From the NCBI GenBank assembly GCA_964408485.1, contig CAYOZJ010000001.1, forward strand, positions 28,366 to 92,365: a DNA stretch of 64,000 nucleotides, given 5' to 3'. The position numbers and the translations under genes were made by a program. How positions within the stretch are numbered: the first letter of the stretch is position 1; each line of letters opens with the position of its first letter. This document shows, one piece after another, positions 10,247-50,065 of this stretch. This DNA comes from an uncultured Gammaproteobacteria bacterium. Its GTDB lineage: Bacteria; Patescibacteriota; Microgenomatia; Levybacterales; UBA12049. The notes under the pieces were generated by a model. It worked only from the letters and a program-made list of their open reading frames with translations. It was not told the origin of the DNA and ran no database searches.

Positions 10247-10280
10247 ACATGATTCTTAATTCATACTTCTTGATTCTACG

Positions 10281-13085: not shown

Positions 13086-13088
13086 TTC

Positions 13089-14699: not shown

Positions 14700-14769
14700 A
14701 GCTCTCTTACGGTAAGTGATTAGTCCGCGGCTAGTCACTTAAAAAATTTCATGCTATACTTTTGACGAT

Positions 14770-20988: not shown

Positions 20989-21828
20989 TTACTGCGCGCT
21001 CCCACTTGCAGAACTTGTTGGTGCGACAGTTACGCTTGGTGTTGGCGAAAGACTAACTATTGGACTTGGCGACACAGTTACTGTTGGCCCCGATTTAATC
21101 GGGGTTGGTGTCACTGATGGAATAATAGTTGCCGAAGAACTTGAAATAGTAGCATTTTGCAAATCATTACCACTTGCAAGAGTAGTCAAAAGCGTCTGAT
21201 CCGCTTGCCCTAGGATAGGAAGGGGATTACCGTCTTGAAAGACAATTTTTGGAATTGCTGCATAATAAAAGACAACCGTTACTGTTATTGACTCATTAGC
21301 ATTTACCGCAATTGCAATAGAATCAGACAAGGGAAGCTGTTTTTTTAATTGTGCAGCAAAACGTTGAGCAGAAAGTAAGTCCCCCTTAAGCGTTACATTT
21401 AATTGTACCGGCAACTGTGCTGTGGCTTTTCCTTTTTGATCTAACCCTGTCAAATCTCCCAATGAAAATGAATAATCTCCAAGAAGTGACCCGGATACGG
21501 CAGCGGCATTTTGGAGTGAATTCACAATGCCCGCAAAATCCTTTTCTGCAGGGAGCGCAGAGGTCGCTGTTGTTAATAGTTGATTTAACTTAACATCGTC
21601 AAGAGAGGTGAGGAGAGACAAGTTTTGACGCATAACTGAGACCTTTTGCGTATCAACGGCCAATGCATCTTTCTGCGCAAAGAAAGATTCCATTTGGGCA
21701 AGTACGACAAACCAAAAAAGTAACACGCAGACAAAAATTGTTGCAACAGGTATTATGAATGCACGATACCGATAATACAAACTTTTAAAAACTAATTGAT
21801 CAATAGTTACTCGTTGATTTGTGTTCAT
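20989..21828 (-). CDS. pilO: type IV pilus assembly protein PilO-like
   Basis: Single N-terminal TM segment, coiled coil, periplasmic domain. Position after pilM-pilN. Pro/Thr/Ser-rich C-terminal tail. Confidence 0.6.
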   Translation of the reverse strand: MNTNQRVTIDQLVFKSLYYRYRAFIIPVATIFVCVLLFWFVVLAQMESFFAQKDALAVDTQKVSVMRQNLSLLTSLDDVKLNQLLTTATSALPAEKDFAGIVNSLQNAAAVSGSLLGDYSFSLGDLTGLDQKGKATAQLPVQLNVTLKGDLLSAQRFAAQLKKQLPLSDSIAIAVNANESITVTVVFYYAAIPKIVFQDGNPLPILGQADQTLLTTLASGNDLQNATISSSSATIIPSVTPTPIKSGPTVTVSPSPIVSLSPTPSVTVAPTSSASGSAQ

Positions 21829-22358
21829 AATAAATCCCCACTTATTGTCAGGACATACTTCCCTCCCTTTTCATCGGAAACTAATCCCTCCACGGTGACA
21901 TTTTTTAAAACCTTTTTTGACGAAATGAGTGTAATAAAATTATCCACTGTCTTACCTAAAAGGGAAACATCTGAAGCAGAGACAGCAATAGATACTGTCT
22001 TTTGATCAAGAACAAAATTGGTAATACTTACGCCATCGGGAATTTGCTTTACAAAGGTTGCTATTGATTGGTCAAAATTACTTTTAGTTTTTTGAAGTAT
22101 TTTTATTTTGTTAATCCTATCAACAATAATAAGATACTTTGCTGTTTTACTCTGCAAAAGCGTTAGCTGTGCAATAATTCGCGACTCTTCATTCTTAACT
22201 GCAATAATGCTTGGGTCACGGCTTAGAAGAAAAAAAAGAATAGAAAGGGATAAAACCAATACAACAGAAACAACTGCTCCTATTTTTGAAAAAAGAAGAA
22301 GCCGTTCTTCAGAAAAGAATCCAATGTTTTTTTGTGGCAGTAGGTTAATATCACTCAT
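21825..22358 (-). CDS. pilN: type IV pilus assembly protein PilN
   Basis: N-terminal INLLP motif, single TM segment, fimbrial-assembly domain. Confidence 0.7.
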   Translation of the reverse strand: MSDINLLPQKNIGFFSEERLLLFSKIGAVVSVVLVLSLSILFFLLSRDPSIIAVKNEESRIIAQLTLLQSKTAKYLIIVDRINKIKILQKTKSNFDQSIATFVKQIPDGVSITNFVLDQKTVSIAVSASDVSLLGKTVDNFITLISSKKVLKNVTVEGLVSDEKGGKYVLTISGDLL

Positions 22359-22360
22359 GG

Positions 22361-23389
22361 TCAGTCGCGCATTGCAAGCCCAGCAGCAATTGCATACTCC
22401 GGAGCATTATCAATAATATCTTTTGGCACCTCCTGCGGGACAAGAAGCTTCCATGGATTGATTATTGCTGTCTCAACATTCGTATTTGCTGTAAAATAGG
22501 TTGCAAGACCAGGAAGCTTAGCCGATCCTCCAGCTAAAATAATTTGTTTAATTGGATCATCAGCATATTTTGTATTATAAAAAGCCAATGCCTTTCTGAC
22601 TTCAGTGAGAATACTGGAAAGAATTGGCTCGGTTACTTTACCAATTTTTCCACCTAATGCGCTATCTGCAAGCCCATATGCTTTCTTGTACTCCTCAGCT
22701 TGCTGCATAGCAAAACCTAAATCCGCTGCTATTGCCCGAGAAATTGCCACCCCTCCTGTTGCAAGAGAAAAGGTAAAGACCAAAACACCATTCTTAATAA
22801 TTGCCAACGATGTACTCATTGCGCCAATATTGACAATAAGTGTTGCAGGAAAATGGTCATCGGTAATAACAGCACGTGTTAGGGAAATAATCTCTGTCTC
22901 CACAGCATTAAGGGTAAGTCCTGCGATACCCAAAATTTTTTCATATCTTTCAATAAGTCCTGTTGGTGCACCAACAAGCAAAACCTGCATAAGTGCGCCT
23001 GCTTCTTTTGTTGTCGGGCGAGAAAGCACTTTATAATCAAGGGTTATGGTTGTTAACGGAACAGGAATATATTGCTCTGCCTCCCAATAAATAGCTGATG
23101 CCAACTCTTTATCAGAAAGTGTTGGTATTTCTATAACTTTTGTATAAACCTGATTTTCAGGAAGAGCGACAGTAACATACCTTGTAGAGATTTTTGCTTC
23201 ACTGACTAAGGTCCGTATTGCTTTTGCCATTTCCTCTTGATCAAGAGGGGATTCTGACATAATTCCCCTTTGAGGAGCGGGCATAACAAGCGCAGACGAC
23301 AAGAAAAAACCATTGGTGTCTTTTGCAAGCCAAACTGCTTTTATTGCATGCGTACCGATATCAAGACCGAATGCTTTTTGTTTTGTCAT
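22361..23389 (-). CDS. pilM: type IV pilus assembly ATPase-like protein PilM
   Basis: Actin-like fold (FGLDIGTHAIKAV...). 4-nt overlaps with neighbours indicate an operon. Confidence 0.85.
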   Translation of the reverse strand: MTKQKAFGLDIGTHAIKAVWLAKDTNGFFLSSALVMPAPQRGIMSESPLDQEEMAKAIRTLVSEAKISTRYVTVALPENQVYTKVIEIPTLSDKELASAIYWEAEQYIPVPLTTITLDYKVLSRPTTKEAGALMQVLLVGAPTGLIERYEKILGIAGLTLNAVETEIISLTRAVITDDHFPATLIVNIGAMSTSLAIIKNGVLVFTFSLATGGVAISRAIAADLGFAMQQAEEYKKAYGLADSALGGKIGKVTEPILSSILTEVRKALAFYNTKYADDPIKQIILAGGSAKLPGLATYFTANTNVETAIINPWKLLVPQEVPKDIIDNAPEYAIAAGLAMRD

Positions 23390-24258
23390 TTTGGTGAAAA
23401 AATTGAAAAGAAAAATTCTGAAGGCACACTATCGTATCCCTGAAAGAAGCTTATTTTTCTAACAGTTTGCGTATCGCTTCCTCCTGCCGTACCAGTCGAG
23501 GTAATAATTTTTCCTTGAATAGGTAACCCTGCACCTTTTATGCCAATTGTCCCTGCTTTGTATAAAGGAATTACTCGCGCAAGAAGACCGCTTGTCACAT
23601 CTATTTGCATACGGTAGTTAAATGTCGCACTTCCATTTATTCCATCAACAACAAATGCTCCTGCTGCAGAGGTAGGACACGATCCTCCAGCCCCAACAGC
23701 ACAGAATGAATTAACAGAGCGTCTTGTTGCACACTGGTCAAATGCATACTTTTTAAGCGTTGGGCTAAGCCGTGTACCAGAAATGACTAATACTTCCATT
23801 GCAGGATCACTACATCCATCGGTATTTGTTCCCCAATGAACAGTAAGTGTTCCATTCCAGGCTGTTTGGAAAAGCTGAGAAGGGGTATCTGTGTGAGGGG
23901 AAAGCCATACATCGGTCCCATCATCTTGAAATACAGGATTTCCATTATTAAGGAGAAATTGACTTCCATCGATAAGAGAAATGTCCACATTGCTAATTTG
24001 TGAATTATTTTTATCATGAAGTGATACATCAGAGAGAATAGCCGCACCATTCGTGTCGCCTAATTTTACAGCCTGTTCAACACCAGCTTCTGCTGCAGAA
24101 AATGCAGCCTGCGATGCAGCTTCATCTGTTGAATTACGAAGATTGGTAATACTCCGGGAAGCAAGAGACAATCCAACGGTTAAAACAATCACCATAACAA
24201 GTACGACAATAAGAAGTGCTTGGCCCTTTTCTGATAATCTCTGGGCTTTCTTATCCAT
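23386..24258 (-). CDS. PilX-N-domain minor pilin-like protein
   Basis: N-terminus KGQALLIVVLVMVIVLTVGLSLASRS resembles the PilX N-domain family rather than a class III signal. Confidence 0.5.
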   Translation of the reverse strand: MDKKAQRLSEKGQALLIVVLVMVIVLTVGLSLASRSITNLRNSTDEAASQAAFSAAEAGVEQAVKLGDTNGAAILSDVSLHDKNNSQISNVDISLIDGSQFLLNNGNPVFQDDGTDVWLSPHTDTPSQLFQTAWNGTLTVHWGTNTDGCSDPAMEVLVISGTRLSPTLKKYAFDQCATRRSVNSFCAVGAGGSCPTSAAGAFVVDGINGSATFNYRMQIDVTSGLLARVIPLYKAGTIGIKGAGLPIQGKIITSTGTAGGSDTQTVRKISFFQGYDSVPSEFFFSIFSPK

Positions 24259-24369
24259 ATACTCATGATATATATCTGAAATTGAGGTGTCAACAAAGTG
24301 AATGTAGTACGTATTAGGTAGTATGTTTTACGCAATAAGATACTTTATTTATACAAAACTTTATACATA

Positions 24370-24963
24370 CTACCTATTTATATTTCGTATACCAATTGAT
24401 GTCTGGAAAACAACAGCGCTTTGAGAAGCAAGTTGCTCTGCAAACGTACTGCTTGATGATTGTTGCAGCGAAAAGTTTATTAAAATAACTGGTAAGTCAG
24501 AATTGCTTTCTTGAGAACAAGTGAATGAACATGATTTCAATGAAACCTGTGATGTATCCAGCAGACTTGCACCATTTGATGATATTGTTGAACTTGTACA
24601 CGCGTAGGTTATTTGCTGATTATCAGGCGTAAGAAGAGAAATAGAATTTGCCGTTACCGGTGGACTGCAGGGAAAAGGAGTCACCAAACCTCTCGCATCC
24701 CGAATAGTTTTAGCCATTTGTGAAAGAGTATAATTTCCATTATTTTGCACAAGTGTAACAATATCTGTTTTATGGGATGTTCTAAATGTTGTTACGAGAA
24801 TACTAAATACGATCGATCCAACGACAATAAAAATTGCAATAACGGCAAGCATTTCAACAAGAGTAAACCCACGCGAAGAGCATAGGGCGAAGGGTCTAGG
24901 GCACAGAATGTCCTTATTCTTTTTAACTCTATGCTCTGTGCTATATGCTCTATGCTTTTTCAT
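24370..24963 (-). CDS. prepilin-type N-terminal cleavage/methylation domain protein (pseudopilin)
   Basis: RGFTLVEMLAVIAIFIVVG class III signal motif. Confidence 0.7.
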   Translation of the reverse strand: MKKHRAYSTEHRVKKNKDILCPRPFALCSSRGFTLVEMLAVIAIFIVVGSIVFSILVTTFRTSHKTDIVTLVQNNGNYTLSQMAKTIRDARGLVTPFPCSPPVTANSISLLTPDNQQITYACTSSTISSNGASLLDTSQVSLKSCSFTCSQESNSDLPVILINFSLQQSSSSTFAEQLASQSAVVFQTSIGIRNINR

Positions 24964-25508
24964 GGCGTTGGAAAAACAGTGAAATCAGAAAAACATGTAG
25001 ACAGTGTTACAGAGTGACAAAAAGGATTTAATGTGTCTTGGCATTTTGGATCATACCATGATGTCCTAACAGTTATCTTAACGTTTGCTGATAGCGCATT
25101 TACTTGACCATTTGGCGTAGGACTTACATTACAATCAGCAGAATCATGCTCGACAACAACTTCCCGTACAAATTTATCAACATTTTGACCACAACTTGTG
25201 GTTTTCACCCAACATTGTGCGTTATTACTATCAAGATCAGAGCAGGCTTTTGCCAAACAATATGTATCGTCTGGTAATAATTCTGCCGAGATTGATGCAA
25301 TATTTTCATTGCGCATATCACGAATCAGCTCAATTCCAGCTTGTGTATATTGTGTTGCAATATTTTGGTCTCTCGCAAAGTCACTATTATTTAACGCACT
25401 AAGTGATGCGCTAACAATTGCCCCAATAATAACAACTGCTGCCGTGAGCGCCACTAACACTTCAATAAGTGTCTGTCCTTTCTCATTTGAAATTTTAAAT
25501 TTCATCAC
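24960..25508 (-). CDS. prepilin-type pseudopilin
   Basis: KGQTLIEVLVALTAAVVIIG N-terminal motif. Start overlaps the upstream gene by 4 nt. Confidence 0.65.
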   Translation of the reverse strand: MMKFKISNEKGQTLIEVLVALTAAVVIIGAIVSASLSALNNSDFARDQNIATQYTQAGIELIRDMRNENIASISAELLPDDTYCLAKACSDLDSNNAQCWVKTTSCGQNVDKFVREVVVEHDSADCNVSPTPNGQVNALSANVKITVRTSWYDPKCQDTLNPFCHSVTLSTCFSDFTVFPTP

Positions 25509-26164
25509 TGTATTACTCCTGTTGCAGAAACAGTTGCAATCTTAGTAAACCCATATCCGGTTATACCAATCTGGGGCGTTGCACCTGACGCATTTGTTGT
25601 CACTGCACCAGTAACCGATGAGAAGAAGAAATAGGTTGCTTTTGTTTTACTTGATGTATCAATAGTCACACCCGGATCCTGAATTTTTTTCCCAAGACAA
25701 GTCTGCGTTATTCTTCCTGACCCATCTGAATTCCCATATACTGCTTGTAACTCATAGGTGTTGGTGTTGGTATTACACTGCGCAGATAAACAAAGTGAGC
25801 TAAATGAGCAACAGGCAACTACTTGGTATCCTTCTAATTCGTACCCCTGACCAGTAAATCCATTTGCAAAACAAGTAGTATCGCGAAGTTGGGAAAGCGC
25901 TCGGGATCTGGCAGTAAAAAGGGTTGTCTTAAACTCTTTCATTGCAGTGTCTACCTGCTGAGATCTGCTGTAGCTTACAAATGAGGCAATACCAACAAGG
26001 GAAAGAATTACCATAACAGAAAAAACAATAATAAGCTCTATGAGAGTAAAACCACGCTCATGCTTTGCATGAGAATTTCCAATTTCTAATTTCCAATTTC
26101 TAACAGAAAGTGTTACGGTGTTATTTTTAGAAGAATTTGAAATTTGACATTTGAAATTTGACAT
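25505..26164 (-). CDS. prepilin-type pseudopilin with long leader
   Basis: ERGFTLIELIIVFSVMVIL motif. A ~45-aa leader is encoded by a low-complexity GAAATTTGACATTT tandem repeat. Confidence 0.65.
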   Translation of the reverse strand: MSNFKCQISNSSKNNTVTLSVRNWKLEIGNSHAKHERGFTLIELIIVFSVMVILSLVGIASFVSYSRSQQVDTAMKEFKTTLFTARSRALSQLRDTTCFANGFTGQGYELEGYQVVACCSFSSLCLSAQCNTNTNTYELQAVYGNSDGSGRITQTCLGKKIQDPGVTIDTSSKTKATYFFFSSVTGAVTTNASGATPQIGITGYGFTKIATVSATGVIQ

Positions 26165-26173
26165 TTGAAATTT

Positions 26174-26740
26174 TTATGGGTTATTTTTTGTGTAGTATAC
26201 GCCTGAGGTACATGCACTATCTCCACCTGCAAACGAAGACGTTGAGTCTGTATCTGCTGAATTTTCAAGACATGCAGCAAGAGTATAGGTAGTACCTGTT
26301 GTATCGTAGTAATAACTTCCTACATGGTAATACGTATTACCCAGTGGGTCGCAGGGAATTTTCTGCATATAGGTTGACCCTGAGTAGGTAAAACTAGATG
26401 GAGTAGGGCAGGCAGCACTATTGAGCCTATTTGTCCCACCTTCTGGAGGATAAGTACCAGTATCAGATCTGTATAACTCAAGCGCCGATTGGATTTGTCT
26501 AACGTCAGATTTTCTTTGTGCATCTCTTGCACGCTGTCTAATACCAATAAAATTGGTCATAAGAAGCGTTGAAAGAATACCAATGATCGCAATAACAATA
26601 AGAAGTTCAATAAGAGTAAAGCCAGCGTTGCTGGAAGTTCCAAATCCCAATTTCCAAGAAACAATTAAATTCCAATACCTCAAATTCCACATTGTTTGTA
26701 TCTTGTTTCTTGTTTCTTGTTTCTTGTTCATACAGATCAA
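26174..26740 (-). CDS. type IV major pilin-like protein (paralog 1)
   Basis: NAGFTLIELLIVIAIIGIL followed by ARD..RKSD..QIQSALELYRSDTGTYP, the T4a pilin / GspG-like fold signature. 45-aa leader. Confidence 0.8.
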   Translation of the reverse strand: MICMNKKQETRNKIQTMWNLRYWNLIVSWKLGFGTSSNAGFTLIELLIVIAIIGILSTLLMTNFIGIRQRARDAQRKSDVRQIQSALELYRSDTGTYPPEGGTNRLNSAACPTPSSFTYSGSTYMQKIPCDPLGNTYYHVGSYYYDTTGTTYTLAACLENSADTDSTSSFAGGDSACTSGVYYTKNNP

Positions 26741-26772
26741 TGGTAAATGGTAAATAATAAATCGTCAATGGG

Positions 26773-27416
26773 CTAGGGTGTTGTGTTAGGACTACTAACA
26801 CCATAGTTGCAAGGGTGGTGTTTGCCTGACGCTCCACAATCAACTGCTGCTGGAACGTTACCACATGTGCAGTACGTGAGACTTTCCGGATTATTAATAC
26901 AATTAGAGACCGTGGCTTTGCAAGTTTGTGTGTCATTTGGTCCTTGTTCAATTGACGTATAGAGATAGTATGACTGAGGAGATCCTCCTGGGGCATAGTA
27001 CACATACGTTCTACTAGAATCCGGATCTTTCGGCACAAGATCCATGTATGGCGACCAACCGCCTGATGCTCCCCATCCAAGACTGACACCATTAAAATCT
27101 GTTATGGTGTATGACGAACTGCTTTTTGGATAATTACCATGATCTTGATAATATTGCTCTAATACTCTTTGAATTTGTGCTAAATCAGACTTACGCTCGC
27201 CATCTCGCGCTTTTCTAAATTGCGCAAGGGGATTAAGGGCTGCAAGAGCAAAAACAGCAAGAATTGCTAAGATTCCAATAACGATAATCAATTCTATAAG
27301 AGTAAAGCCAGCGTTGCTGGAAGTTCCAAATCCCAATTTCCAAGAAACAATTAAATTCCAATACCTCAAATTCCAAATTGTTTGTATCTTGTTTCTTGTG
27401 TCTTGTGTCTTCGTCA
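26773..27416 (-). CDS. type IV major pilin-like protein (paralog 2)
   Basis: Leader plus N-terminal helix nearly identical at DNA level to paralog 1. C-terminal domain divergent and Cys-containing. Start placed at MTKTQDTRNK. Confidence 0.8.
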
Positions 27417-27418
27417 TA

Positions 27419-28213
27419 TTAATTAAATGCACAACTTTGACTGCAGTGCTGATCACAATAACAGTGGATATCTCCACCATAGTCTGTACACTGCGTCTTT
27501 GGTGCAATACTATTACATCTATTATCTCCTGTGCATCCATAAAACTGGTCACCAGGGCATGCAAGCGGCGTAGGAGTTGGTGTTATAGTCGGACCACCAC
27601 TGCCACCAGTAACAGTTGGAACTGTATCGCCTTGATTAATAACGTAACTGGCAACTTGGCTACAATCAACACTTCCTGAAATAGTACAGTAATTATAGTT
27701 ATTGGTTCTATACCCATTTGGCACACATGATGTTCGCTGTGCAAGAGGACAAGCATTACTTGGGACAGACGAACTCCGCAGGGCTGAGTACAAGACGTTC
27801 CATTGAGGACAGCTACTCGTTGAGTCAGGCTCATATAAGTAACACTTATCCGAATCACTGCCACAATCAGGATCCTGAGGAACTTTTTCCATATACACAT
27901 GATTATGTACTTTCCAGATCACCCCAAAGGTCAAAGAAGTTGGGTAACATCCAGTATCATTAAAGTAGCTATCAAGTGCCCTTTGAATTTGTCCCAAATC
28001 ATGCTCTCTCTTTCCATCATTTGCTTTATTGTATTGAGCAAGGGGATTAAACGTAGTAATCAGTCCAACAAGAAGAATTCCTAAAATAGCCAAAACAACA
28101 ACTAGCTCAATAAGAGTAAAACCTGATTGATAATGAAACCAACTATACGACTGAGAAAGATTCTTCAAAAACCAAGAATTCTTACTGCGTATTTCCATAA
28201 AAAATCTCCCCAT
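27419..28213 (-). CDS. type IV pilin-like protein with Cys-rich C-terminal domain (paralog 3)
   Basis: QSGFTLIELVVVLAILGIL plus NDGKREHDLGQIQRALDSYFNDTGCYP. About 20 Cys in the C-terminal 120 aa. The start overlaps the pilD 3' end. Confidence 0.8.
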   Translation of the reverse strand: MGRFFMEIRSKNSWFLKNLSQSYSWFHYQSGFTLIELVVVLAILGILLVGLITTFNPLAQYNKANDGKREHDLGQIQRALDSYFNDTGCYPTSLTFGVIWKVHNHVYMEKVPQDPDCGSDSDKCYLYEPDSTSSCPQWNVLYSALRSSSVPSNACPLAQRTSCVPNGYRTNNYNYCTISGSVDCSQVASYVINQGDTVPTVTGGSGGPTITPTPTPLACPGDQFYGCTGDNRCNSIAPKTQCTDYGGDIHCYCDQHCSQSCAFN

Positions 28214-28935
28214 ATTAGTGCTAGTAATGCTCCGAGAAAAAGGAAAGGTCCAAAAGCAATTGTGCTTCCTTTAAATTTCTTTTTCCCTTCTAAAATGAGT
28301 ATGACGCCGCATATACCACCTGTCAAGAAAGCTATATAGTATGCAACAACAATATATGGAAATCCAAGAAGAAATCCTAAAATTGCAACAAGTTTTACAT
28401 CTCCAAACCCCATCCCCCTGCCTTTAGAAAAAAGAAAAATAAGAAAAAGCGGTAAACTAGCCATAATAGCTACAACTAATCGCAAAGGAATCGTTGTGGG
28501 ATCGACAAGGAAAACAGCACACACAACAAGAATTCCAAACACAATAAGCAATGCATCCGACAAGATATGATACTTGATATCCATAATCGCAAGAGCAATC
28601 CCTAGAGAAAACAGTAACGCACTAATTGAATACATACCGAGATGAACCATATCGGTAGGCCACTGAAAAAGAAAAATCCCAATAAAAGCGATGCCAGTGA
28701 GAAGTTCTATGAGAGGGTATTGAAAAGAAAGCTTTTTATGACAATACCTACATTTTCCTCTCAGGAAGGCAAAGGACACAATTGGAATGAGATCAAACGC
28801 AGAAAGAGTATGATGACAAAAATCACAATGTGACCGACCAAAAAGTACTGATTTATTTGCAGGTATTCTATCAATCAAAACATTAAGAAACGAACCCATA
28901 CATAATCCAAAAATAAATAAAAAAAATATTGCCAT
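28165..28935 (-). CDS. pilD: prepilin peptidase (A24 family)
   Basis: N-terminal CxxC...CxxC zinc-binding cytoplasmic domain and polytopic membrane domain (GMGFGDVKL region). Confidence 0.9.
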   Translation of the reverse strand: MAIFFLFIFGLCMGSFLNVLIDRIPANKSVLFGRSHCDFCHHTLSAFDLIPIVSFAFLRGKCRYCHKKLSFQYPLIELLTGIAFIGIFLFQWPTDMVHLGMYSISALLFSLGIALAIMDIKYHILSDALLIVFGILVVCAVFLVDPTTIPLRLVVAIMASLPLFLIFLFSKGRGMGFGDVKLVAILGFLLGFPYIVVAYYIAFLTGGICGVILILEGKKKFKGSTIAFGPFLFLGALLALIWGDFLWKYAVRILGF

Positions 28936-28998
28936 AAAACAACCCTCACCCTTGTATTCCCTCTCCCAAAAGGAGAGGGGGCTTTGTCACGTTACCCA

Positions 28999-30153: not shown

Positions 30154-30162
30154 ACAATAGGT

Positions 30163-32196
30163 TTATTTACTTGATACTCCAAGCGTATCTTTTGACGCTG
30201 ACAATGCCTTTTGAAAGTCTTTGCGATAGAGTTGGGTATAGGCGATACTTACCTCACTTGCTCTTTTTTTATCTTTAAAACAATTCAGATACATAGTATA
30301 TAAGAGAAAGTATGGTGTTTCTTGATACTGGTTGAGTGCTAGTGATTGAGAAAGATTATCTGCTGCATAGCCACATTTTCCAGCAATTCCAGAATATAAA
30401 ACTCCCAACGCGCTATATGCTTTATCATTATTCGGCTCAATATCGCGGGCTTTTTTATAGAAAGAAAGCGCGCTATCTGTATCTTGATAGCGTGTATAGA
30501 TAAAGGTTCCAGTAGCAATAAGTGAATTACTATACGCATTGGGGATTTCCGCAATTGTTAGGCTATGAGCAACAGGATTTTTTCTTTCTTCAATTGTTGG
30601 AGCATGAAGCGTTGACCAAATAGAACCAACTTGCATTTCGTAACTTTTTTTGTCGGGGAGACGATCTACATCTTGATACATTTCAAAAACAAGTCCGAAA
30701 GGTACCCATATAAGTTTTTCGCCTGTTTTGGGTTGAAATTGAGTTGTTGAAAAAATTCGCCGTGTGCTACTCATCGAACGGACTATCTTTATTAGTGCTT
30801 CTGTTCTATTTTTCGAGCTAACTCCTTTAAGACCATCTGCAATACTATTGTGCGTTACAGGTGTTGCCCCTATATTATAAAGGAGAATGTCTGGCCGGTC
30901 ATGAAGCGCGTAATGCACATACCATGTATTAAAAATTTGTGTATCCCCAGATATAAGAAGTACAGCATTACGCGGCAATGGATCGAGAAAGTCTTTCGCG
31001 TAGGTATCGCCAATCATAAGGGATGCAAGATTTGTCTTAGGGGTATTATAGACAAAAAGCATGAGCGGAATGAAAAGAAAAAGACAGGTAAAAAGAACTT
31101 CATAATGACGTTTGGGTAAAAAGCTTGCAAGACGCACAGTAAATACATAAAGGCCAATTCCAAAAGGAATAAGAAAAATCACCGTTGAAAGTAAGGTAAA
31201 TCGTTCGTATGCACCAATAATAAAACTGCTTGTTAAAGGAAATCCTGCATACATCAAAAAAACTGGACCAGAAAGCAACCACGCAAGAAATAGTGACGTG
31301 AAGAGTATTTTATCCTTTTTGAAAATGTGCCAAAACCCAAGAAAAGTAAGTACTATCGTTGGAATTGTTAACTGAAATAAAAGATACTGTACATAAAGCC
31401 ATAAGGTAACAAGGCGTTGCGCAAAGGAAGGCGTATCAAAAATACCAGCTTGAAAGGTACCATAATCTTTCCGGAGAATTAAATGAAAAAAGGAGGGAAT
31501 ATCATGAACTGAATCCCAATTAATAATTGGGTTATGGGCAGATGCAATAAAAATATATAAGAAAGGTGTTAATCCAAGAACAAATGATAAAAGCAAAAGA
31601 AGAATCAATAACATATTCTTTTTTATCTGAAGAAATAATTGTTTCCCAATTAATAGAAAAAGTGATGGAACGATAAGAATAATTGTTGAATGATGCGTAG
31701 AGGCAAGTCCGAGGCAAAAAAAGAAAAGATACAATACGGGTCCTTTTTTACTTTGACGAAAAAGAAGCGCCAAAAGAAATAGCACAAGCGCAAAGAATGT
31801 ATTTAACATAAATACTTCAGCAACTTCCGCATAAAACCAATAGAGAAAAGAGAATCCAAGAATGAGTGATGCAACAACACTGTTTAATGAATTTTTTGTA
31901 AGTTGCTTGGTAAAAAGATAAAAACATACAACGCCACCTGCTCCCGCAAATGCAGAAATTAACCCAACGGCAAATGCAGGAGAAATACGAGCAAGAATGG
32001 AATGAGTTAGTAAAAATCCTAGAAAGGTGAATAACGGATATCCTGAAGGGTGAGCAACTCCTCCAACGCTTGCTGCTGTTACTAAGTCGCCAACATCTCC
32101 TCCATAAATACTTCTCGAGAGATGACTAACGTAAAGCAGCAAAAATCCACTAAACAAAAATGTGGGCAGGATAATTTTCTTAACTAAAGAGAGCAT
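30163..32196 (-). CDS. DUF2723/TMEM260-like GT-C membrane protein with C-terminal TPR repeats
   Basis: N-terminal polytopic domain with GGDVGDL...HPSGYPLF loop, then a soluble C-terminal TPR region (YKKARDIEPNNDKAYSALGVLY...). Confidence 0.55.
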   Translation of the reverse strand: MLSLVKKIILPTFLFSGFLLLYVSHLSRSIYGGDVGDLVTAASVGGVAHPSGYPLFTFLGFLLTHSILARISPAFAVGLISAFAGAGGVVCFYLFTKQLTKNSLNSVVASLILGFSFLYWFYAEVAEVFMLNTFFALVLFLLALLFRQSKKGPVLYLFFFCLGLASTHHSTIILIVPSLFLLIGKQLFLQIKKNMLLILLLLLSFVLGLTPFLYIFIASAHNPIINWDSVHDIPSFFHLILRKDYGTFQAGIFDTPSFAQRLVTLWLYVQYLLFQLTIPTIVLTFLGFWHIFKKDKILFTSLFLAWLLSGPVFLMYAGFPLTSSFIIGAYERFTLLSTVIFLIPFGIGLYVFTVRLASFLPKRHYEVLFTCLFLFIPLMLFVYNTPKTNLASLMIGDTYAKDFLDPLPRNAVLLISGDTQIFNTWYVHYALHDRPDILLYNIGATPVTHNSIADGLKGVSSKNRTEALIKIVRSMSSTRRIFSTTQFQPKTGEKLIWVPFGLVFEMYQDVDRLPDKKSYEMQVGSIWSTLHAPTIEERKNPVAHSLTIAEIPNAYSNSLIATGTFIYTRYQDTDSALSFYKKARDIEPNNDKAYSALGVLYSGIAGKCGYAADNLSQSLALNQYQETPYFLLYTMYLNCFKDKKRASEVSIAYTQLYRKDFQKALSASKDTLGVSSK

Positions 32197-32202
32197 GAGA
32201 GC

Positions 32203-32763
32203 CTATTGCGAGCACCAATAGCAGGCAGTTGATGTTGGATTACAATCTCCAGTTGGTGAGTGTGGCGAACCATCTCTATTAAATTTAGCATTTGGATCCG
32301 ACCTTTGAGCTTTTGATTGTGGTTGGAAGCAGGCGGTAATATCGGTATCTGTTCCACTGACAATGATACTAGTTAATACACTCGTTACTGTCGTGAAGGC
32401 AGCCTTAATCTCTCCATCTGACACAAGACTACTCAAGCAAGTTACCAAATCAGGATTAAGAGACAATGACGTTGGATTATTATTGCCATTACACCCATTA
32501 TGCCATGGCATACTGTTATGAGTTGTGTAGTAGCGAATATTTGCATCAATAAATTCAACCGCAGTATTTTTAGTGTTCGCATCATTTGCTTTCTTAAGCT
32601 GCTCGAATGGATCAATAGTTGCAACAAGCGCTGCAGCCAAAACACCTAAAATACCAATAACAACAAGGAGTTCGATAAGGGTAAAACCCTTTTGTGAAGA
32701 AATATGAAAACTCCTTAGGAGTTTGGACAGTTTTTTCATGAATCTATACTTTAAGTTAAACAT
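32203..32763 (-). CDS. type IV pilin-like protein
   Basis: KGFTLIELLVVIGILGVLAAALVATI class III signal and N-terminal helix. Start may be the second Met (MKKLSKLL). Confidence 0.75.
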   Translation of the reverse strand: MFNLKYRFMKKLSKLLRSFHISSQKGFTLIELLVVIGILGVLAAALVATIDPFEQLKKANDANTKNTAVEFIDANIRYYTTHNSMPWHNGCNGNNNPTSLSLNPDLVTCLSSLVSDGEIKAAFTTVTSVLTSIIVSGTDTDITACFQPQSKAQRSDPNAKFNRDGSPHSPTGDCNPTSTACYWCSQ

Positions 32764-32885
32764 ACTTTTTTTAACCTTGTCAAGCCCCGTGTTTAGTCTG
32801 TCAATCCCACCACGTAATTACTCTCTTACCTTTCTCTCGCTCCTTTTTGATTTTCTTTTATTTTTAAGAGTAAAAAATAAGTATA

Positions 32886-33397
32886 TGCGTCACCATGATA
32901 CACTTTTTACATATAATAAAAGCAGAGAAAGCAGTTCACCTAACCAACAAGGTCCTCCTTCCACAAATGAAAAGCAAAAACTCCACCATCTCATGAATAG
33001 ATCTCAAACACCACTGCTAGAAGTTACTACGGTTTTTCCTTTTGACTTGTTTCCTGACACGATTGTTATTGATGCAACCAAAGTACATATTATTGATAGG
33101 GAATTTTTCTTCACTGAAGAGATTCACAGTATCCCTATTAAAAATATCGTTGATATTTATGTCGATACAGGACCATTTTTTGCAACTCTTCGAATACTTC
33201 CTCAATTGATATTTCAAAACCAAATTACACAAATTCCAAAACTATGGAAATCAGATGCGATGAAAGCAAGAGATGTCATCCAAGGACTTATTCTTGCAAC
33301 AAAAGAAAATATTAATGTGACAAATCTGCCTGATGAGGTAGATACAGATCAACTGCAGCACGACTTACAATCACTGGGACGACCTCAGCCTCATTGA
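32886..33397 (+). CDS. hypothetical protein (about 170 aa), only plus-strand gene inside the pilus locus
   Basis: ATG at 32886. The ORF-track 5' extension overlaps the pilin on the opposite strand and was discarded. No family recognised. Confidence 0.35.
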
Positions 33398-34593
33398 ATA
33401 CTTGAAGTAAGGTTATAAATTGGAGTAATGATTGAAATAATCAGAAAAGATACGCCAATACCCAACACGATCATAATAAATGGTTCCATTGCCGTTGTTA
33501 ATGTTTTGACTGTCCCATCAACTTCACGCTCAAAGTACTCACTGACTTTAAGGAGCGATTCATCTAATTTTCCTGTTTGCTCGCCAATTTTTACCATTTG
33601 GACAAGAATGGGAGGAAAAATATCAAATGCATTCATAGCGTCCCCAATAGTAACGCCTTTTTCAACGCGCTTGGAAATCTCCTGAATTGCACTTCGATAG
33701 ATAACATTTCCTGTCGTATCAGCTGATTCATTTAATGACTGGACAACAAGCGTCCCTGCACTTATAAGAAGACCAAATGTACGGGTAAATTCAGCCATAA
33801 TGGTCTTTTTGATGAGATTACCAAAAACAGGAAGACGAAGCTTAATTCCATCGGTAATCAGTTTTCCTGAATCAGTTTTTCGCCATCTGTTATATGCAAC
33901 GCCAAACAAAATAACCATGCCCAAGATTAACGGCCAAAATCCAATGGTGAAATCAGAAACACTTACCATAAACTGTGTCGTGGGAGGCAAGGGAATATTG
34001 AGATTTTGGTACAAAACAGTTAATTGAGGAATAACAAAAATCATCATAACAAACATAACAACAACCATAAGGACAACAACAATAACAGGATAGGTAAGAG
34101 CAGACTTAATTGTCGCTTGCAATTTTTGTTGCTTCTCCAAGTTATCAGCAAGCCGCAAAAGTACTTTATCTAAAAATCCAGAAGATTCTGCAGCACGAAT
34201 AAGAGAAATGTAAATCGGATTAAAAATCTTCGGATACTTGGCAATTGCATCGGCAAATGTTTTTCCTTCTTGGACATCTCCTATAAGGCTATTTACCACT
34301 TGCTTCATCGCAGGATTCTGAACTTGTTCTTTTAAAATATTGAGCGCCTGCATAAGTGTTAGACCGGAGGAGAGAATGGATGACAATTGTCTTGTAAATA
34401 AAACCAAATCTTCTGTTGAAGATTTTTGAAAAAGTTGGGAAAAAGAAAAACTATTCGTTGCAATTTGCCTCACAGAAAGTGGCAACATACCTTTCCCTCT
34501 TAGAAATCCCACAGCCTCATTAACATCTCTTGCTTCCAAAACACCCTGGGTTATTTTGCCATCCTTGCTGGTCGCGCGGTACGTTATTTTCAT
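33391..34593 (-). CDS. pilC: type IV pilus platform protein PilC (GspF family)
   Basis: Two GspF-type repeats and three TM segments. Confidence 0.9.
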   Translation of the reverse strand: MKITYRATSKDGKITQGVLEARDVNEAVGFLRGKGMLPLSVRQIATNSFSFSQLFQKSSTEDLVLFTRQLSSILSSGLTLMQALNILKEQVQNPAMKQVVNSLIGDVQEGKTFADAIAKYPKIFNPIYISLIRAAESSGFLDKVLLRLADNLEKQQKLQATIKSALTYPVIVVVLMVVVMFVMMIFVIPQLTVLYQNLNIPLPPTTQFMVSVSDFTIGFWPLILGMVILFGVAYNRWRKTDSGKLITDGIKLRLPVFGNLIKKTIMAEFTRTFGLLISAGTLVVQSLNESADTTGNVIYRSAIQEISKRVEKGVTIGDAMNAFDIFPPILVQMVKIGEQTGKLDESLLKVSEYFEREVDGTVKTLTTAMEPFIMIVLGIGVSFLIISIITPIYNLTSSIQ

Positions 34594-34595
34594 GA

Positions 34596-35675
34596 TTATC
34601 CAACCATTCGAAGTAATTCGTCAGGATGCAAGCTGTAGGATTTTGCTGTATCAAGACTAATTGCTCCTGACAAGACGAGTTGAGAAAGAGAATTGTCTAA
34701 AGCAATCATGCCAACATCTTGTGACGTTTGAATAATTGAGTCTATAAGATGCGTTTTGCCATCTCGTACGTTACTTGCAACTGCTGGTGTCCCAACAAGT
34801 ATCTCAACTGCGGGAATTCGTCCTCCAGAGATTTGAGGAATAAGCCTTTGCGAAATAATGCCCTTTAACGTAAAGGAAAGTTGTGTACGAATTTGAGACT
34901 GTTGGTGCTCTGGAAAACTATCAATTATTCTATCAATTGACTGTGATGCAGAATTTGTATGCAAGGTAGATAAAACCAAATGACCAGTCTCAGCAATTGT
35001 CATTGCAGCAGCCATTGTGTCCGGATCTCGCATTTCTCCAATTAAGACAACGTCTGGATCTTCACGAAGAGCACTTCTGAGAGCCATTGTCCATGAATGA
35101 GTATCTGTCTTCATTTCGCGCTGAGAAATGATACTTTTCCCATTTGGATAAACATATTCAATTGGGTCTTCAATAGTTAATATATGACTACTTCTCGTCA
35201 TATTAATTTCATTAATCATTGAGGCAAGCGTTGTTGATTTTCCTTGTCCTGTTGGGCCAGTTACCAAAATAAATCCTTGACGTAGATTAGCGAAGTTATG
35301 ACAAATTCTTGGTAAATGTAAATCTTCGATTGTTTTGATTGTTTTGGGCAAAAAACGGAAAGCAGCACATAATTGACCTCTTTGGTAATATGCATTCACA
35401 CGAAATCTTCCTAGGTCTCCATAAATTCCTCCACCATATGGCATGGAAAAATCAAGCTCTTTATTTGCTACTAATAAATCTTTTTGCTCAGCAGAGAGCA
35501 AAGTAAAAAGCATACTCGTCACACTTTCCGAACTTAACGCTGCAATCGATGCAACATAGGAAAGGGCACCATCAACACGAATTGCTGGAGGAAGTCCAGG
35601 CAATAAATGCAAATCTGATGCATTACTTTTAACGACTAATTCTAATAATTGTTGTAAATCCATAAGTTCGATCAT
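34596..35675 (-). CDS. pilT: twitching-motility (retraction) ATPase PilT
   Basis: Walker A GPTGQGKSTT, Asp box and His box of PilT/GspE ATPases. Length of about 360 aa is typical of PilT. Confidence 0.9.
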   Translation of the reverse strand: MIELMDLQQLLELVVKSNASDLHLLPGLPPAIRVDGALSYVASIAALSSESVTSMLFTLLSAEQKDLLVANKELDFSMPYGGGIYGDLGRFRVNAYYQRGQLCAAFRFLPKTIKTIEDLHLPRICHNFANLRQGFILVTGPTGQGKSTTLASMINEINMTRSSHILTIEDPIEYVYPNGKSIISQREMKTDTHSWTMALRSALREDPDVVLIGEMRDPDTMAAAMTIAETGHLVLSTLHTNSASQSIDRIIDSFPEHQQSQIRTQLSFTLKGIISQRLIPQISGGRIPAVEILVGTPAVASNVRDGKTHLIDSIIQTSQDVGMIALDNSLSQLVLSGAISLDTAKSYSLHPDELLRMVG

Positions 35676-35752
35676 CGCCTATCGCAAATAGGTAATCGAT
35701 ATAATTTATTAAAACACAAACTATTACCGATAAGCCATATGCGATATGCCCA

Positions 35753-37594
35753 TCATTCCTGCGCAACGCGCAAAACCTCTTCAATTGTTGTTACTCCCGC
35801 GAGTGCTTTAAGATATCCATCTTGTTTCATTGTTATCATTCCTTCTGCAGTTGCTTGCTTTACGATTGTTTCCGCATCTGCTCGCTGCAAAATAAGATGA
35901 GCAATTTTTTCGGTTACTGTAAGGACTTCAAAAATACCAACTCGGCCAATGTATCCTGAGTCACCGCATTGATTACATCCTTTTCCTTTATAGAGCTTTA
36001 CCTCGCCAGTTGGCATAATCGGTCCCAGATTTGTTTTAATCTCCTCAACAAGCTGAGCAGCTGGAATATAGGATTCCTTACAGGTATCACAAATTTTTCT
36101 AACAATTCTTTGTCCCATAACGGCAGTAATTGTTGAAGCAAGTAAAAATGTCTCTGCGCCTAAATCAATAAGACGAGGGAGAGCACCCGATGCATCGGAG
36201 GTATGAAGGGTGGAGAAGACCAAATGGCCAGTGAGTGCCGCTTGGATAGCCAAATCCGTTGTCTCACCGTCTCGGATTTCTCCAACAAGAATAATATTTG
36301 GATCCTGACGAAGAAAACTACGTAATCCGTCAGCAAACGTTAATCCGACAGCTGGATTAATTTGTACTTGATTTACTCCCTGTATTTCATATTCGACCGG
36401 ATCCTCAAGTGACACAATATTTACGCGCGTTGTATTAAGTTTTGCAAGCACAGCATACAGCGTCGTTGTTTTTCCTGATCCCGTAGGTCCGCAAACAAGA
36501 ATAATGCCATGGGGCCGAAGAATTGCTGTCTCCAACGCCTTAAGAGACAATCCGTTAAGTCCGAGTTCTGGCAAAGTTGGGATACCACCTGATTTTCGAA
36601 GAAGTCTCATCACAATTTTTTCACCGTGTACTGTTGGAAGGACAGAAATACGAAGATCAACTTCTTGATTACCAACTTTAAAATTAAACCTGCCGTCTTG
36701 TGGCATGCGATGCTCATCGATTTTCATTTCCGACAAAACCTTAATACGGGAAATAACTGCTTCTTGTACTGTTTTAGGAAGACTCAACCGGTCATACAAA
36801 ATACCATCAATACGGTATCTCACCCGTACCCTGTCATCCATTGGTTCTATGTGCACATCAGATGCGCGGGAATTTACTGCATACTCAAGAATCGTTGCCA
36901 CAATTTTTGCAATTGGCGCTTCTTTAATAATTTGACCAATCTGGCTACTATCAACTGTTTTAGTTGTATTTTCTTGCTTTAGTGCTTCTGTTTCTTTAAC
37001 AGCTCTCCCAACTTCTCCAACTAATTCTTGTCTGTACTGCGCATTAATTGCATTCTTCACGTCTGTTGGTGTTGAGGCAAAAGTTTTTATGGTAAGTCCT
37101 GTTTTTTGTTGAATAAAGGAAAGTGCATCCAAATCTGCTGGGTTACTCATAGCAACCGAGAGAATTTTCGTCTTATCATCGTAAAGAAATGGAATCAGCT
37201 GAAACCGCTCAACAACGGCACGCGGAATAAAACTTAATGCTTCTGGAGAAAAGGATGCTGTTGCTAAATTAATGTAGGGGACACCAAGCATTTGCGCTTT
37301 GGCCTCAGCAATTTTTGCCTCATCCACTATATGCATTTCATCTAATACTTCGTCCGTTGATCTATTCGTTGTTGCGCTTTTTAATTTTATATCGTCATAT
37401 TGCTCTTTGGTAAGCAAATTTTCTCTGAATAATAAATCAGTAACACTCTCTCCAATAGTAGCTGAGACAGGAGGAGCAGGTTGTACCACTACTGAAGGAT
37501 TAAGAACAGGAGCAGCACCTCCGGCAGAAGAGGGAACAACTGGCACATTTGTTCCAACAGGTTGTGCCTGCGGAACGACTTGCTGATCGGGCAT
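35753..37594 (-). CDS. pilB: type IV pilus assembly ATPase PilB (GspE family)
   Basis: Walker A GPTGSGKTTT, N-terminal GspE_N domain, tetracysteine zinc motif CDTC...CNQC. Confidence 0.9.
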   Translation of the reverse strand: MPDQQVVPQAQPVGTNVPVVPSSAGGAAPVLNPSVVVQPAPPVSATIGESVTDLLFRENLLTKEQYDDIKLKSATTNRSTDEVLDEMHIVDEAKIAEAKAQMLGVPYINLATASFSPEALSFIPRAVVERFQLIPFLYDDKTKILSVAMSNPADLDALSFIQQKTGLTIKTFASTPTDVKNAINAQYRQELVGEVGRAVKETEALKQENTTKTVDSSQIGQIIKEAPIAKIVATILEYAVNSRASDVHIEPMDDRVRVRYRIDGILYDRLSLPKTVQEAVISRIKVLSEMKIDEHRMPQDGRFNFKVGNQEVDLRISVLPTVHGEKIVMRLLRKSGGIPTLPELGLNGLSLKALETAILRPHGIILVCGPTGSGKTTTLYAVLAKLNTTRVNIVSLEDPVEYEIQGVNQVQINPAVGLTFADGLRSFLRQDPNIILVGEIRDGETTDLAIQAALTGHLVFSTLHTSDASGALPRLIDLGAETFLLASTITAVMGQRIVRKICDTCKESYIPAAQLVEEIKTNLGPIMPTGEVKLYKGKGCNQCGDSGYIGRVGIFEVLTVTEKIAHLILQRADAETIVKQATAEGMITMKQDGYLKALAGVTTIEEVLRVAQE

Positions 37595-37649
37595 TACTTT
37601 TATAATAGGCGCTCCTGCGTTATACTGTCAAGGAAGGAGTGGAAAAATG

Positions 37650-42205: not shown

Positions 42206-42335
42206 TAGACGATAGATGATTGATAATAGAAGATGGGTTTGGAAAATAGAAAATTGTTTGTAGAACTTCTACCTTCAATCTTCTAGCTTCTACCACTACT
42301 TTCTATAATCTATTTTCTATCGTCAAATATTTTAT

Positions 42336-47428: not shown

Positions 47429-47471
47429 AAGAATCTTGTCAATAAGTGGGTTTTCCCATATACTGTCTAAT

Positions 47472-48020: not shown

Positions 48021-48085
48021 CCTCAAAGCGTAAGAATTTGTCTTATAGTATTGACATTTCTGAAAGAAATGTTTATAATGCTCAT

Positions 48086-49988: not shown

Positions 49989-50065
49989 AGATATTGATGA
50001 TTTATAATTTATTATTTACCATTGACGAAAACTTTTATGGACATATTAATTAGAATATTTTGCGA

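Follow-up and report, generated by a model that had tools for sequence, protein, structure and literature searches.

The 64-kb window analyzed here (the whole stretch of 64,000 nucleotides, taken from contig CAYOZJ010000001.1 of assembly GCA_964408485.1) contains a type IV pilus (T4P) locus of 16.6 kb (window positions 20989-37594), in which 17 minus-strand open reading frames (ORFs), overlapping by 4 nt or separated by small gaps, lie between trmD (20171-20968, plus strand) on one side and holB (37769-38425, plus strand) on the other. The genes run in the order pilB, pilT, pilC, a pilin gene (PilA0), two genes for membrane proteins of the GT-C glycosyltransferase fold (GT-C 1 and GT-C 2), pilD, three further pilins, three minor pilins, a PilX/GspK-like protein, and pilM-pilN-pilO (Table 1). 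ORFs together with Pfam and ortholog profiles confirmed these genes, their coordinates, and their order, all of which had been proposed in an earlier reading of the sequence (hereafter, the original prediction); the claim of one contiguous minus-strand run did not hold, as a conserved plus-strand gene interrupts it. We consider it probable that this is a single, chromosomally fixed, secretin-less, type IVa-like pilus locus between holB and trmD, and that its highly conserved pilin, PilA0, is O-glycosylated by GT-C 1, a relative of the human enzyme TMEM260.

Profile matches support a type IVa-like machinery with extension and retraction ATPases, PilC, PilD, PilMNO, and class III pilins. Both the assembly ATPase PilB and the retraction ATPase PilT are present as predicted, and the Walker motif reported for the ATPases was read in PilB as Walker A GPTGSGKTT, next to a tetracysteine CxxC...CxxC motif; PilT is 94% identical to its ortholog in the related locus L005. 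Profiles for GspE, PilT, GspF, the A24 peptidase, and PilM/N/O each found their gene, with PilN and PilO of the window alone scoring below Pfam cut-offs. These two, weak or silent as single sequences, were identified through ortholog alignments built from related loci: PilN carries an invariant N-terminal INLL(P), the PilM-binding motif, its Pfam family is matched by 10 of 20 orthologs, and its best match in PDB is M. xanthus PilN (3jc8, E=0.012), and the PilO ortholog profile matches M. xanthus PilO (3jc8) at 2.4e-5, with Pfam PilO found in 16 of 24 orthologs. The C-terminus of PilO (20989-21170) is a low-complexity, Ser/Thr/Pro-rich tail of ~60 aa that could be a wall-spanning or O-glycosylated segment; this region is not conserved, having no determined ortholog consensus and a BLAST coverage of 69-88% outside L005. 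As originally predicted, the window shows no Pfam secretin-family match among the 47 ORFs scanned (27 of them outside the locus; eight more ORFs of 120 aa or longer, for the most part overlapping or shadow frames, were left out), which over these 64 kb would fit a monoderm-type envelope, and absence of a secretin has been reported for the Candidate Phyla Radiation (CPR) in general (PMC6744442). Host attachment or DNA uptake by the pilus is plausible by analogy with the CPR literature (PMC6744442, PMC11623550).

Table 1. Genes, repeats, and promoter-like matches of the pilus locus, in window coordinates (aa, amino acids; E-values follow the family names)
Feature	Position	Strand	Length	Observations
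Promoter match, sigma-70-like	37602..37631	-		TTGACA-18-TATTAT, 11/12; holB-pilB gap, upstream of pilB; consensus match only
pilB, extension ATPase	35753..37594	-	613 aa	Pfam T2SSE 1.2e-127 (426 bits); MshEN 5e-13 (49 bits)
pilT, retraction ATPase	34596..35675	-	359 aa	T2SSE 1.3e-43; no N-terminal MshEN
pilC, platform protein	33391..34593	-	400 aa	T2SSF 8.8e-62, two stretches
Small conserved gene	32885..33397	+	170 aa	Convergent with pilC, 7-nt overlap
PilA0, highly conserved pilin	32203..32739	-	178 aa	Alternative ATG 32763; N_methyl 9.2e-9
GT-C 1, TMEM260-like predicted protein O-glycosyltransferase	30163..32196	-	677 aa	C-terminal tetratricopeptide repeat (TPR)
GT-C 2, PIG-V/PMT_2-like GT-C enzyme	28999..30153	-	384 aa	AlphaFold2 (AF2) fold match to GT-C enzymes
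pilD, prepilin peptidase/N-methyltransferase	28165..28935	-	256 aa	A24_N_bact 3.2e-33; Peptidase_A24 2.2e-13; GFGDVK motif
Pilin 1	27419..28213	-		N_methyl 6.5e-9; GspG-like 2.4e-11; 5' end overlaps pilD 3' end
Pilin 2	26773..27417	-	214 aa	37-aa leader; T2SSG 4.4e-7; N_methyl
Pilin 3	26174..26731	-	185 aa	37-aa leader; T2SSG 6.5e-9; TIGR01710 GspG 3.2e-20
Minor pilin 4	25505..26164	-		N_methyl 2.4e-6; GspH-like position; 38-aa leader of 7/14-nt arrays
Minor pilin 5	24960..25508	-		G-QTLIE type; N_methyl 2.3e-4, borderline; one-to-one orthologs in 20 loci
Minor pilin 6	24370..24963	-		G-FTLVE type; N_methyl 1.3e-5; orthologs in 20 loci
Promoter-like match	24265-24293	-		11/12; by the PilX/GspK-like gene
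PilX/GspK-like protein	23386..24258	-	290 aa	No Glu5; PilX_N 3.4e-4, sub-threshold; GspK 0.067
pilM	22361..23389	-	342 aa	PilM_2 1.6e-55
pilN	21825..22358	-	177 aa	Pfam PilN 2.6e-4, below cut-off
pilO	20989..21828	-	279 aa	No Pfam match as a single sequence
Direct repeat, 90% identical	26573..26732 and 27259-27418		160 nt	Covers leader, start codon, and first ~17 mature codons of pilins 2 and 3
Six period-7/14 tandem arrays (Tandem Repeats Finder)	24927-24956, 26074-26103, 26134-26173, 26696-26728, 26739-26771, 27382-27411			Span 24927..27411

GT-C 1 belongs to Pfam PF11028 (TMEM260-like, formerly DUF2723; 72.1 bits against a cut-off of 24.2, 6.2e-20) and aligns to human TMEM260 (9rql_A) over its residues 15-440 with E=3.5e-34, the family profile reaching E=2.3e-65, so that the homology covers both the GT-C and the Rossmann-like domains. 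Its C-terminus adds a TPR (TPR_11 at 571-601), and TPR proteins match profile positions 564-637. In TMEM260, mutagenesis or structure identifies residues D52, H67, R264, Y267, and R355 as binding the donor and D441 as the catalytic base, and the TPR domain recruits an extended acceptor peptide, the family being protein-specific (bioRxiv 10.64898/2026.03.17.711096). HMMER aligns D34, H49, R242, Y245, R332, and D418 of GT-C 1 to these six positions in the same order, and all six are invariant in 21 homologs of 37-100% identity. These aligned, invariant donor and catalytic residues argue that GT-C 1 very probably shares the chemistry of TMEM260, with a polyprenyl-phosphate sugar as donor, a protein Ser/Thr as acceptor, and the reaction on the outer face of the membrane. 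The human enzyme (PDB 9rql) thus has the same GT-C core, Rossmann-like domain, donor and catalytic residues, and C-terminal TPR as GT-C 1, and it is a protein O-mannosyltransferase for the IPT domains of plexins, cMET, and RON; it differs in being a eukaryotic enzyme of the endoplasmic reticulum that uses dolichol-P-mannose, whereas GT-C 1 must use a bacterial polyprenyl-phosphate sugar, and in its IPT acceptors, a domain that pilins lack. The paper that reported the discovery of TMEM260 mentions bacterial members just as "distant homologs in bacteria," and our literature search found no paper linking TMEM260/DUF2723 to pili; as far as that search showed, the TMEM260-like family is newly connected with pili here.

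The second embedded membrane protein is confirmed as a GT-C enzyme by its fold, as the first is by its PF11028/TMEM260 homology, in agreement with the original prediction. By sequence alone, GT-C 2 falls below the Pfam gathering threshold (PMT_2, 18.1 bits against 26.1; 0.0034), and phmmer and profile searches of PDB gave no match, for which reasons we class it at the fold or superfamily level only. Among 13 orthologs, nine match PMT_2 (best 5.6e-6) and three the PIG-V-type Mannosyl_trans2 (best 8.8e-7), and many database homologs bear precomputed PMT_2/PIG-V domains. The structure search settled the fold: an AF2 model built from 41 sequences (predicted local distance difference test, pLDDT, 94.7) returned GT-C enzymes at all Foldseek PDB ranks from 1 to 37, with E down to 8.6e-5, including STT3/AglB/PglB, ALG9/12, ArnT, Pmt4, PIG-M, and PimE. 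D56, in the TWDAQHY motif of the first outside loop, is invariant in 41 homologs. Present in about one third of related loci, GT-C 2 would be an optional enzyme that extends or diversifies a glycan, by analogy with mannosyl extension of the PIG-V/PimE type.

The evidence that ties GT-C 1 to the pilus comes from comparing its family alignment with one genome per species (GTDB) and annotating the 80 best loci by phmmer and a motif script; counts are restricted to loci with at least 3 kb of flank (76 overall, of which 28 hold closer homologs). A T4P gene lies within 3 kb of the GT-C 1 homolog in 27 of the 28 closer loci and in 47 of all 76, and in the closer set a pilin gene stands directly upstream in 22 and PilD or GT-C 2 directly downstream in 24. 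In the window itself, PilA0 and GT-C 1 are co-oriented, with the glycosyltransferase gene downstream and a gap of only 6 nt that holds no terminator-like site. The order holB / pilBTC - pilin - GTC1 - (GTC2) - pilD - pilins - pilMNO / trmD is found again in dozens of loci from Patescibacteria, even where the glycosyltransferase is only ~33% identical, and no pilus genes occur near the homologs of under ~31% identity in Acidobacteria, Verrucomicrobia, Myxococcota, and Elusimicrobia, which argues that the linkage is specific. It also recurs in other arrangements: two metagenome-assembled genomes (MAGs) carry a second GTC1 paralog (L031/L041, CAYLXX01; L035/L061, CAZAEE01) that adjoins a second pilin/PilC/PilB cluster, with no PilT, PilD, or PilMNO nearby, the first paralog residing in the main pilus operon, and homologs in Firestonebacteria abut pilB-pilC. 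Our main argument for taking pilus proteins as the substrates of GT-C 1 is that the association is repeated and independent of arrangement. The link between the glycosyltransferases and pilin glycosylation, suggested originally from their position among the pilins, is thereby strengthened, both by conserved synteny and by the homology of GT-C 1 to a protein-specific O-mannosyltransferase.

A glycosyltransferase gene directly after a pilin gene has a precedent in the pilA-tfpW(-tfpX) arrangement of group IV Pseudomonas aeruginosa, which we compared by description rather than by sequence. TfpW is a 646-aa GT-C enzyme with 11 transmembrane helices and a periplasmic TPR, encoded directly downstream of pilA, that glycosylates the pilin (bioRxiv 10.1101/2020.04.19.049825; PMC11841053), and pilin glycosylation of this type defends against pilus-specific phages. 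Both TfpW and GT-C 1 are ~650-680 aa long and have 11 transmembrane helices; in each, the first outside loop bears a GT-C acidic motif, and the C-terminal domain, large and also outside, contains TPR. TfpW O-glycosylates its pilin on the outer face of the membrane, as we propose for GT-C 1. The two enzymes differ in type: TfpW is Emb/ArnT-like, has a DDX motif, and transfers D-arabinofuranose, whereas GT-C 1 has the GGDxGD motif and catalytic set of TMEM260. In Pseudomonas, an attenuating terminator separates the accessory gene from the pilin gene (PMC11841053); here, no terminator lies between the pilin and glycosyltransferase genes. The arrangement in the window would be a pilin-plus-accessory-glycosyltransferase cassette like pilA-tfpW, but one that sits within the core operon beside pilD. 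As GT-C 1 has no Wzy_C/O-antigen-ligase domain (Pfam), it is not TfpO/PglL-like. Protein O-mannosylation in actinobacteria offers a further likeness, in that the protein mannosyltransferase Rv1002c initiates and a PimE-type GT-C is proposed to elongate, using polyprenyl-P-mannose outside the membrane: an initiating GT-C is paired there with a second, possibly elongating one, and acceptor regions are S/T/P-rich. The actinobacterial initiator belongs to GT39 rather than to the TMEM260-like family, and that system is Sec-coupled, general, and not linked to pili.

The presumed acceptor is the most conserved of the pilins. The first 30 mature residues of PilA0 (FTLIELLVVIGILG.LAAALVATIDPFEQL at the mature N-terminus) are near-identical in ~30 loci, and identity over the whole protein is 45-80%, exceeding that of PilD and GT-C 1 in most loci compared; the protein database holds 1568 homologs. 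An AF2 model (pLDDT 84) has the lollipop shape of a long alpha1 helix with a small head, and the head gave no significant match to solved pilins. By homology, PilD would process membrane-inserted prepilins at G-F(Q)TLIE (the hyphen marking cleavage), PilB and PilC would polymerize the pilins on a PilMNO scaffold, with PilM-N-O as the cytoplasmic-membrane alignment complex, PilT would retract the filament, and the three minor pilins and the PilX/GspK-like protein would form the usual priming or tip set; such a filament would need no outer-membrane channel. GT-C 1 would act on the outer face of the membrane, holding a polyprenyl-phosphate donor in its transmembrane GT-C core and passing the hexose of this donor, probably mannose, to Ser/Thr of PilA0; the transfer could precede or follow cleavage of the leader. 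The acceptor segment, in extended form, would be presented by the TPR and Rossmann-like domains of the enzyme. A candidate site is the conserved Thr-Thr directly after alpha1; pilins of Neisseria and of group IV Pseudomonas bear their glycans in this region. Further targets may include the S/T/P tail of PilO, the Pro/Thr linker of pilin 1, and other pilins, and GT-C 2, in those relatives that have it, would elongate or diversify the glycan. We regard O-glycosylation of pilin by GT-C 1 as a well-supported and testable proposal.

The pilins themselves fall into distinct groups. Seven ORFs carry the class III prepilin motif G-(F/Q)TL(I/V)E with Glu5, six with N_methyl above cut-off and one borderline. 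The four major-like pilins, the three minor pilins, and the PilX-like protein each have one-to-one orthologs in the same order in ~20 related loci; because of these orthologs, we view the pilin genes as old and distinct rather than as recent paralogs, and the "four major-pilin paralogs" of the original prediction are four orthologous groups, each one-to-one in more than 20 related loci. In pilin 1, the pilin domain is followed by a linker rich in Gly or Pro/Thr and then, at the C-terminus, by a Cys-rich module (27419-27568) that is ~45 aa long and has eight Cys; the module is kept in the L005 and L053 orthologs, and elsewhere there is one strong match among 1.84 billion representative proteins. 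The linker and module are more typical of a minor or adhesin pilin, and the module may be an adhesin or ligand-binding tip. Pilin 2, in order the third pilin, has its true start at ATG 27417 (the TTG start of the longest ORF is wrong) and has one-to-one orthologs of 40-79% identity in 20 loci. Pilin 3 is the second most conserved pilin, with orthologs 48-67% identical. The L003 ortholog of minor pilin 4 matches GspH weakly, and exact look-ups found neither the pilin 3 nor the minor pilin 4 sequence on record. The PilX/GspK-like protein is conserved in 20 loci at 35-84% identity and, by its absence of Glu5, looks like the tip proteins of the GspK/PilX type.

This diversity bears on how many fibers the machinery builds. 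It is possible, though we do not favor it, that one machinery assembles two, a PilA0 pilus and a GspG-like fiber of pilin 3 and pilin 2 that serves, for example, DNA uptake or secretion, in which case the multiple pilins would reflect a division of function and not redundancy. PilA0 and pilin 3 are both unusually conserved (50-80% and 48-67% identity, above the values for PilD or GT-C 1) and have unrelated head domains, and pilins 2 and 3 match T2SSG/GspG and, weakly, ComGC; moreover, Saccharibacteria make two distinct type IV pili, and heteropolymeric monoderm pili are cited in the same work (PMC11623550). However, the locus has a single PilB, PilC, and PilD, and co-assembly of all pilins into one filament is equally possible. 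A second fiber can coexist with the glycosylation model.

Several points weigh against glycosylation of PilA0 by GT-C 1. The assignment of pilins as substrates is drawn from gene neighborhood only, and TMEM260-family members of other phyla clearly serve non-pilin substrates. Neither a polyprenyl-phosphate-sugar synthase (GT2) nor a flippase occurs among the scanned ORFs of the window. As the PilA0 model matches no solved pilin significantly, the position of the candidate Thr-Thr site is speculative; about two thirds of related loci lack GT-C 2, so the system can do without it; and sequence does not single out one pilin as the builder of the filament. We think it unlikely, all the same, that both GT-Cs are general envelope or protein glycosylation enzymes that merely share the pilus operon, with pilins not their specific substrates; such enzymes might modify lipoglycans or proteins of the wall or surface layer, or serve a step that the pilus needs to pass through the wall. 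TMEM260-like homologs of Acidobacteria, Verrucomicrobia, Myxococcota, and others without T4P neighbors would fit such a role, as would the weak match of GT-C 2 to a "cell surface glycopolymer formation" family and the generic O-glycosylation targets offered by the S/T/P-rich tail of PilO and the Pro/Thr linkers; yet the closer homologs lie near T4P genes in all but one of 28 loci, with the pilin upstream and PilD or GT-C 2 downstream in most, the association has re-formed independently with second pilus clusters, and the TMEM260 family is protein-specific, recognizing peptides through its TPR (bioRxiv 10.64898/2026.03.17.711096). We consider it highly improbable that the locus encodes a type II secretion or competence (Com) pseudopilus and not a retractile type IV pilus, for although several pilins score best against GspG/GspH/ComG models and DNA uptake has been associated with pili of CPR bacteria (PMC6744442), the matches to Gsp models are confined to the common N-terminal helix and lie below family cut-offs, a dedicated PilT and PilM-N-O are present, and the GspD/GspC/GspL-M set is absent.

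Beyond the proposed glycosylation of PilA0 by GT-C 1, the pilin genes of the window are distinguished by their leaders and by repeats at their 5' ends. Leaders are 31-38 aa long in five of the seven pilins (counted from the first ATG) and 26 aa in PilA0, or 18 from its second ATG, compared with a lineage median of 13 aa. The adjacent and otherwise different genes of pilins 2 and 3 have a common Trp-rich leader of 33-37 aa, which falls within their direct repeat, best read as gene conversion between neighboring pilin genes. We considered and rejected this leader as a conserved signal, as it is specific to the window, the orthologs in L005, the closest relative, having unrelated leaders of 8 and 17 aa.

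The tandem arrays of the locus, with periods of 7/14 nt and 3-6 copies, lie at the 5' ends of the genes for pilin 2, pilin 3, minor pilin 4, and minor pilin 6, and the related locus L085 also has period-7/14 arrays at pilin 5' ends (13081-13113, 13605-13640, 14676-14706). Over the window and 80 related loci (1.42 Mb), the density of period-7/14/21 arrays is 0.92 per kb in pilin 5'/leader zones, 0.23 in other gene 5' zones, and 0.07 elsewhere, an excess of ~4-fold over other gene starts and ~13-fold over the remainder, and repeats of other periods are flat across the same zones (0.63, 0.57, and 0.45 per kb). Of 34 arrays in the window and related loci, 23 fall within the reading frame of the leader: an ATG precedes them, and no alternative start follows. 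The units follow no single consensus, being diverse and AT-rich. As a unit of 7 is not divisible by 3, slippage would frameshift the pilin, as in classical contingency loci, and the arrays may have a role in phase variation or in regulation. No copy-number differences were seen where the near-clonal Logan contigs L085-L092 (eight samples) overlap, a weak test in which one array is covered twice. The leader of minor pilin 4 (MSNFKCQIS...NWK, TCAAATT/TCAAATG repeats) is conserved in L085, L017, and L045, and its conservation among relatives whose glycosyltransferases are only 33-42% identical argues against rapid switching. Further period-7/14 arrays at 10252-10277, 35728-35749, 42266-42305, 50000-50018, and 53965-54028 are intergenic or 5' of non-pilus genes, one of them 31 nt upstream of gyrA, so that 5' regions in these genomes seem to carry heptamer arrays generally. 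Such arrays recall the heptanucleotide STRR repeats of cyanobacteria. The bolder proposal that the TMEM260 family of Microgenomates-type Patescibacteria is a dedicated, operon-encoded pilin glycosyltransferase and that the conserved heptamer arrays, of which the unusually long pilin leaders are built, serve as a control element at the start of each pilin gene, through slipped-strand on/off switching or regulator binding, so as to give glyco-decorated, individually switchable pilins, is one that we put forward only as a long shot.

The remainder of the window is housekeeping in character (thrS, infC, pheST, a class A penicillin-binding protein, recG, rnc, trmD, holB, gyrB, gyrA, folD, efp, and others), and the holB / pil / trmD arrangement is also found in MAGs titled Levybacteria, Roizmanbacteria, Gottesmanbacteria, and "Patescibacteria group." The flanking genes and relatives place the organism in the Patescibacteria (Microgenomates/Levybacteria-like). 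Many MAGs titled "uncultured Gammaproteobacteria bacterium" (binchicken/SRP co-assemblies; L008, L014, L016, L018, L020-L023, L025, and others) carry a Patescibacteria-type locus, so that these titles are evidently wrong, and one close relative bears the title "Candidatus Eisenbacteria." We regard the small plus-strand gene within the pilus locus as real because tblastn homologs of 35-47% identity occupy the equivalent position in four related loci (L053/L002, L007, L009), the L053/L002 homolog at 47% (4e-38); it matched no Pfam/NCBIfam family beyond a weak bPH_3 hit (0.019; bacterial PH domain). The junction between pilC and PilA0 in which it lies (32740-33390) is a variable insertion point among relatives. 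It holds one small gene in the window, measures ~50 nt in both L003 and L004, and in L002 (1200-9340) takes up ~8 kb of additional genes, one of them for a histidine kinase; in L085 (3600-7450) it contains a response regulator, a methyltransferase, and a seven-transmembrane histidine kinase, and a GT87 enzyme is also among the genes inserted in some relatives. These insertions recall the sensor-regulator pairs that adjoin pilA in other bacteria.

A scan for promoters and terminators gave no enrichment over shuffled sequence and just two 11/12 matches in sensible gaps (Table 1), and Rfam returned two tRNAs only across the window and nothing within 24000-33500 even at E<=1. The segment 28001-32000, which spans pilD and both GT-C genes, has a G+C of 0.34-0.35 against 0.38-0.41 around it, with an AT skew of 0.27 in the 28-30 kb bin and 0.15 at 30-32 kb; horizontal acquisition of the glycosyltransferase genes, prompted by the lower G+C, was rejected because these genes are syntenic across the lineage and their products are Phe/Leu/Ile-rich membrane proteins. 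Farther along, Pfam-less ORFs (46313-47428, 47999-48964, 50148-51005) and a dTDP-sugar-isomerase-like ORF (47343-48020) flank the gene of a tyrosine recombinase (48966-49988; Phage_integrase 2.4e-42), and the segment 46313-51005 may be a small island, or the recombinase simply xerC/D.

In its basic form the locus is known biology, ordinary for Patescibacteria/CPR. Secretin-less, co-localized T4P genes have already been described as a CPR hallmark (PMC6744442; PMC7143001), and Saccharibacteria T4P have been studied experimentally (PMC11623550). The published loci (PMC6744442; Ch65 Microgenomates, PMC7143001; TM7x T4P-1/T4P-2, PMC11623550/PMC12206443) have the same co-localized PilB, PilT, PilC, PilD, PilM/N/O, and several pilins, lack PilQ, and are assigned the same proposed roles of host attachment, twitching, and DNA uptake. 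These descriptions mention no embedded GT-C, and glycosylation in TM7x is only predicted by glycosite software, whereas here a TMEM260-type GT-C separates the pilin gene from pilD, an arrangement kept across Microgenomates-type genomes. Monoderm type IV pili of Firmicutes (Clostridium; the heteropolymeric pilus of Streptococcus sanguinis) likewise have no secretin, hold PilB/T/C/D and PilMNO in one locus, and co-encode several pilins, including modular ones with extra C-terminal domains, as here, in a different lineage; we know of no embedded GT-C enzymes in those loci.

CPR/Patescibacteria are believed to rely mainly on type IV pili to find and hold their hosts and to take up DNA, and in other bacteria pilin glycans alter adhesion, phage susceptibility, and immune recognition. 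A pilus-embedded enzyme of the TMEM260 type would predict O-glycosylation by a route not earlier linked to pili, and the pilin-GT-pilD arrangement would serve as a simple marker for comparing CPR surfaces. PilA0, small and very conserved, would offer a tractable bacterial substrate for a family whose only characterized member is TMEM260, a human congenital-heart-defect gene. If true, the dedicated pilin glycosylation would give the bacterial branch of this human disease-gene family its first function, and together with the switching it would portray an episymbiont with a glyco-decorated, switchable pilin repertoire.

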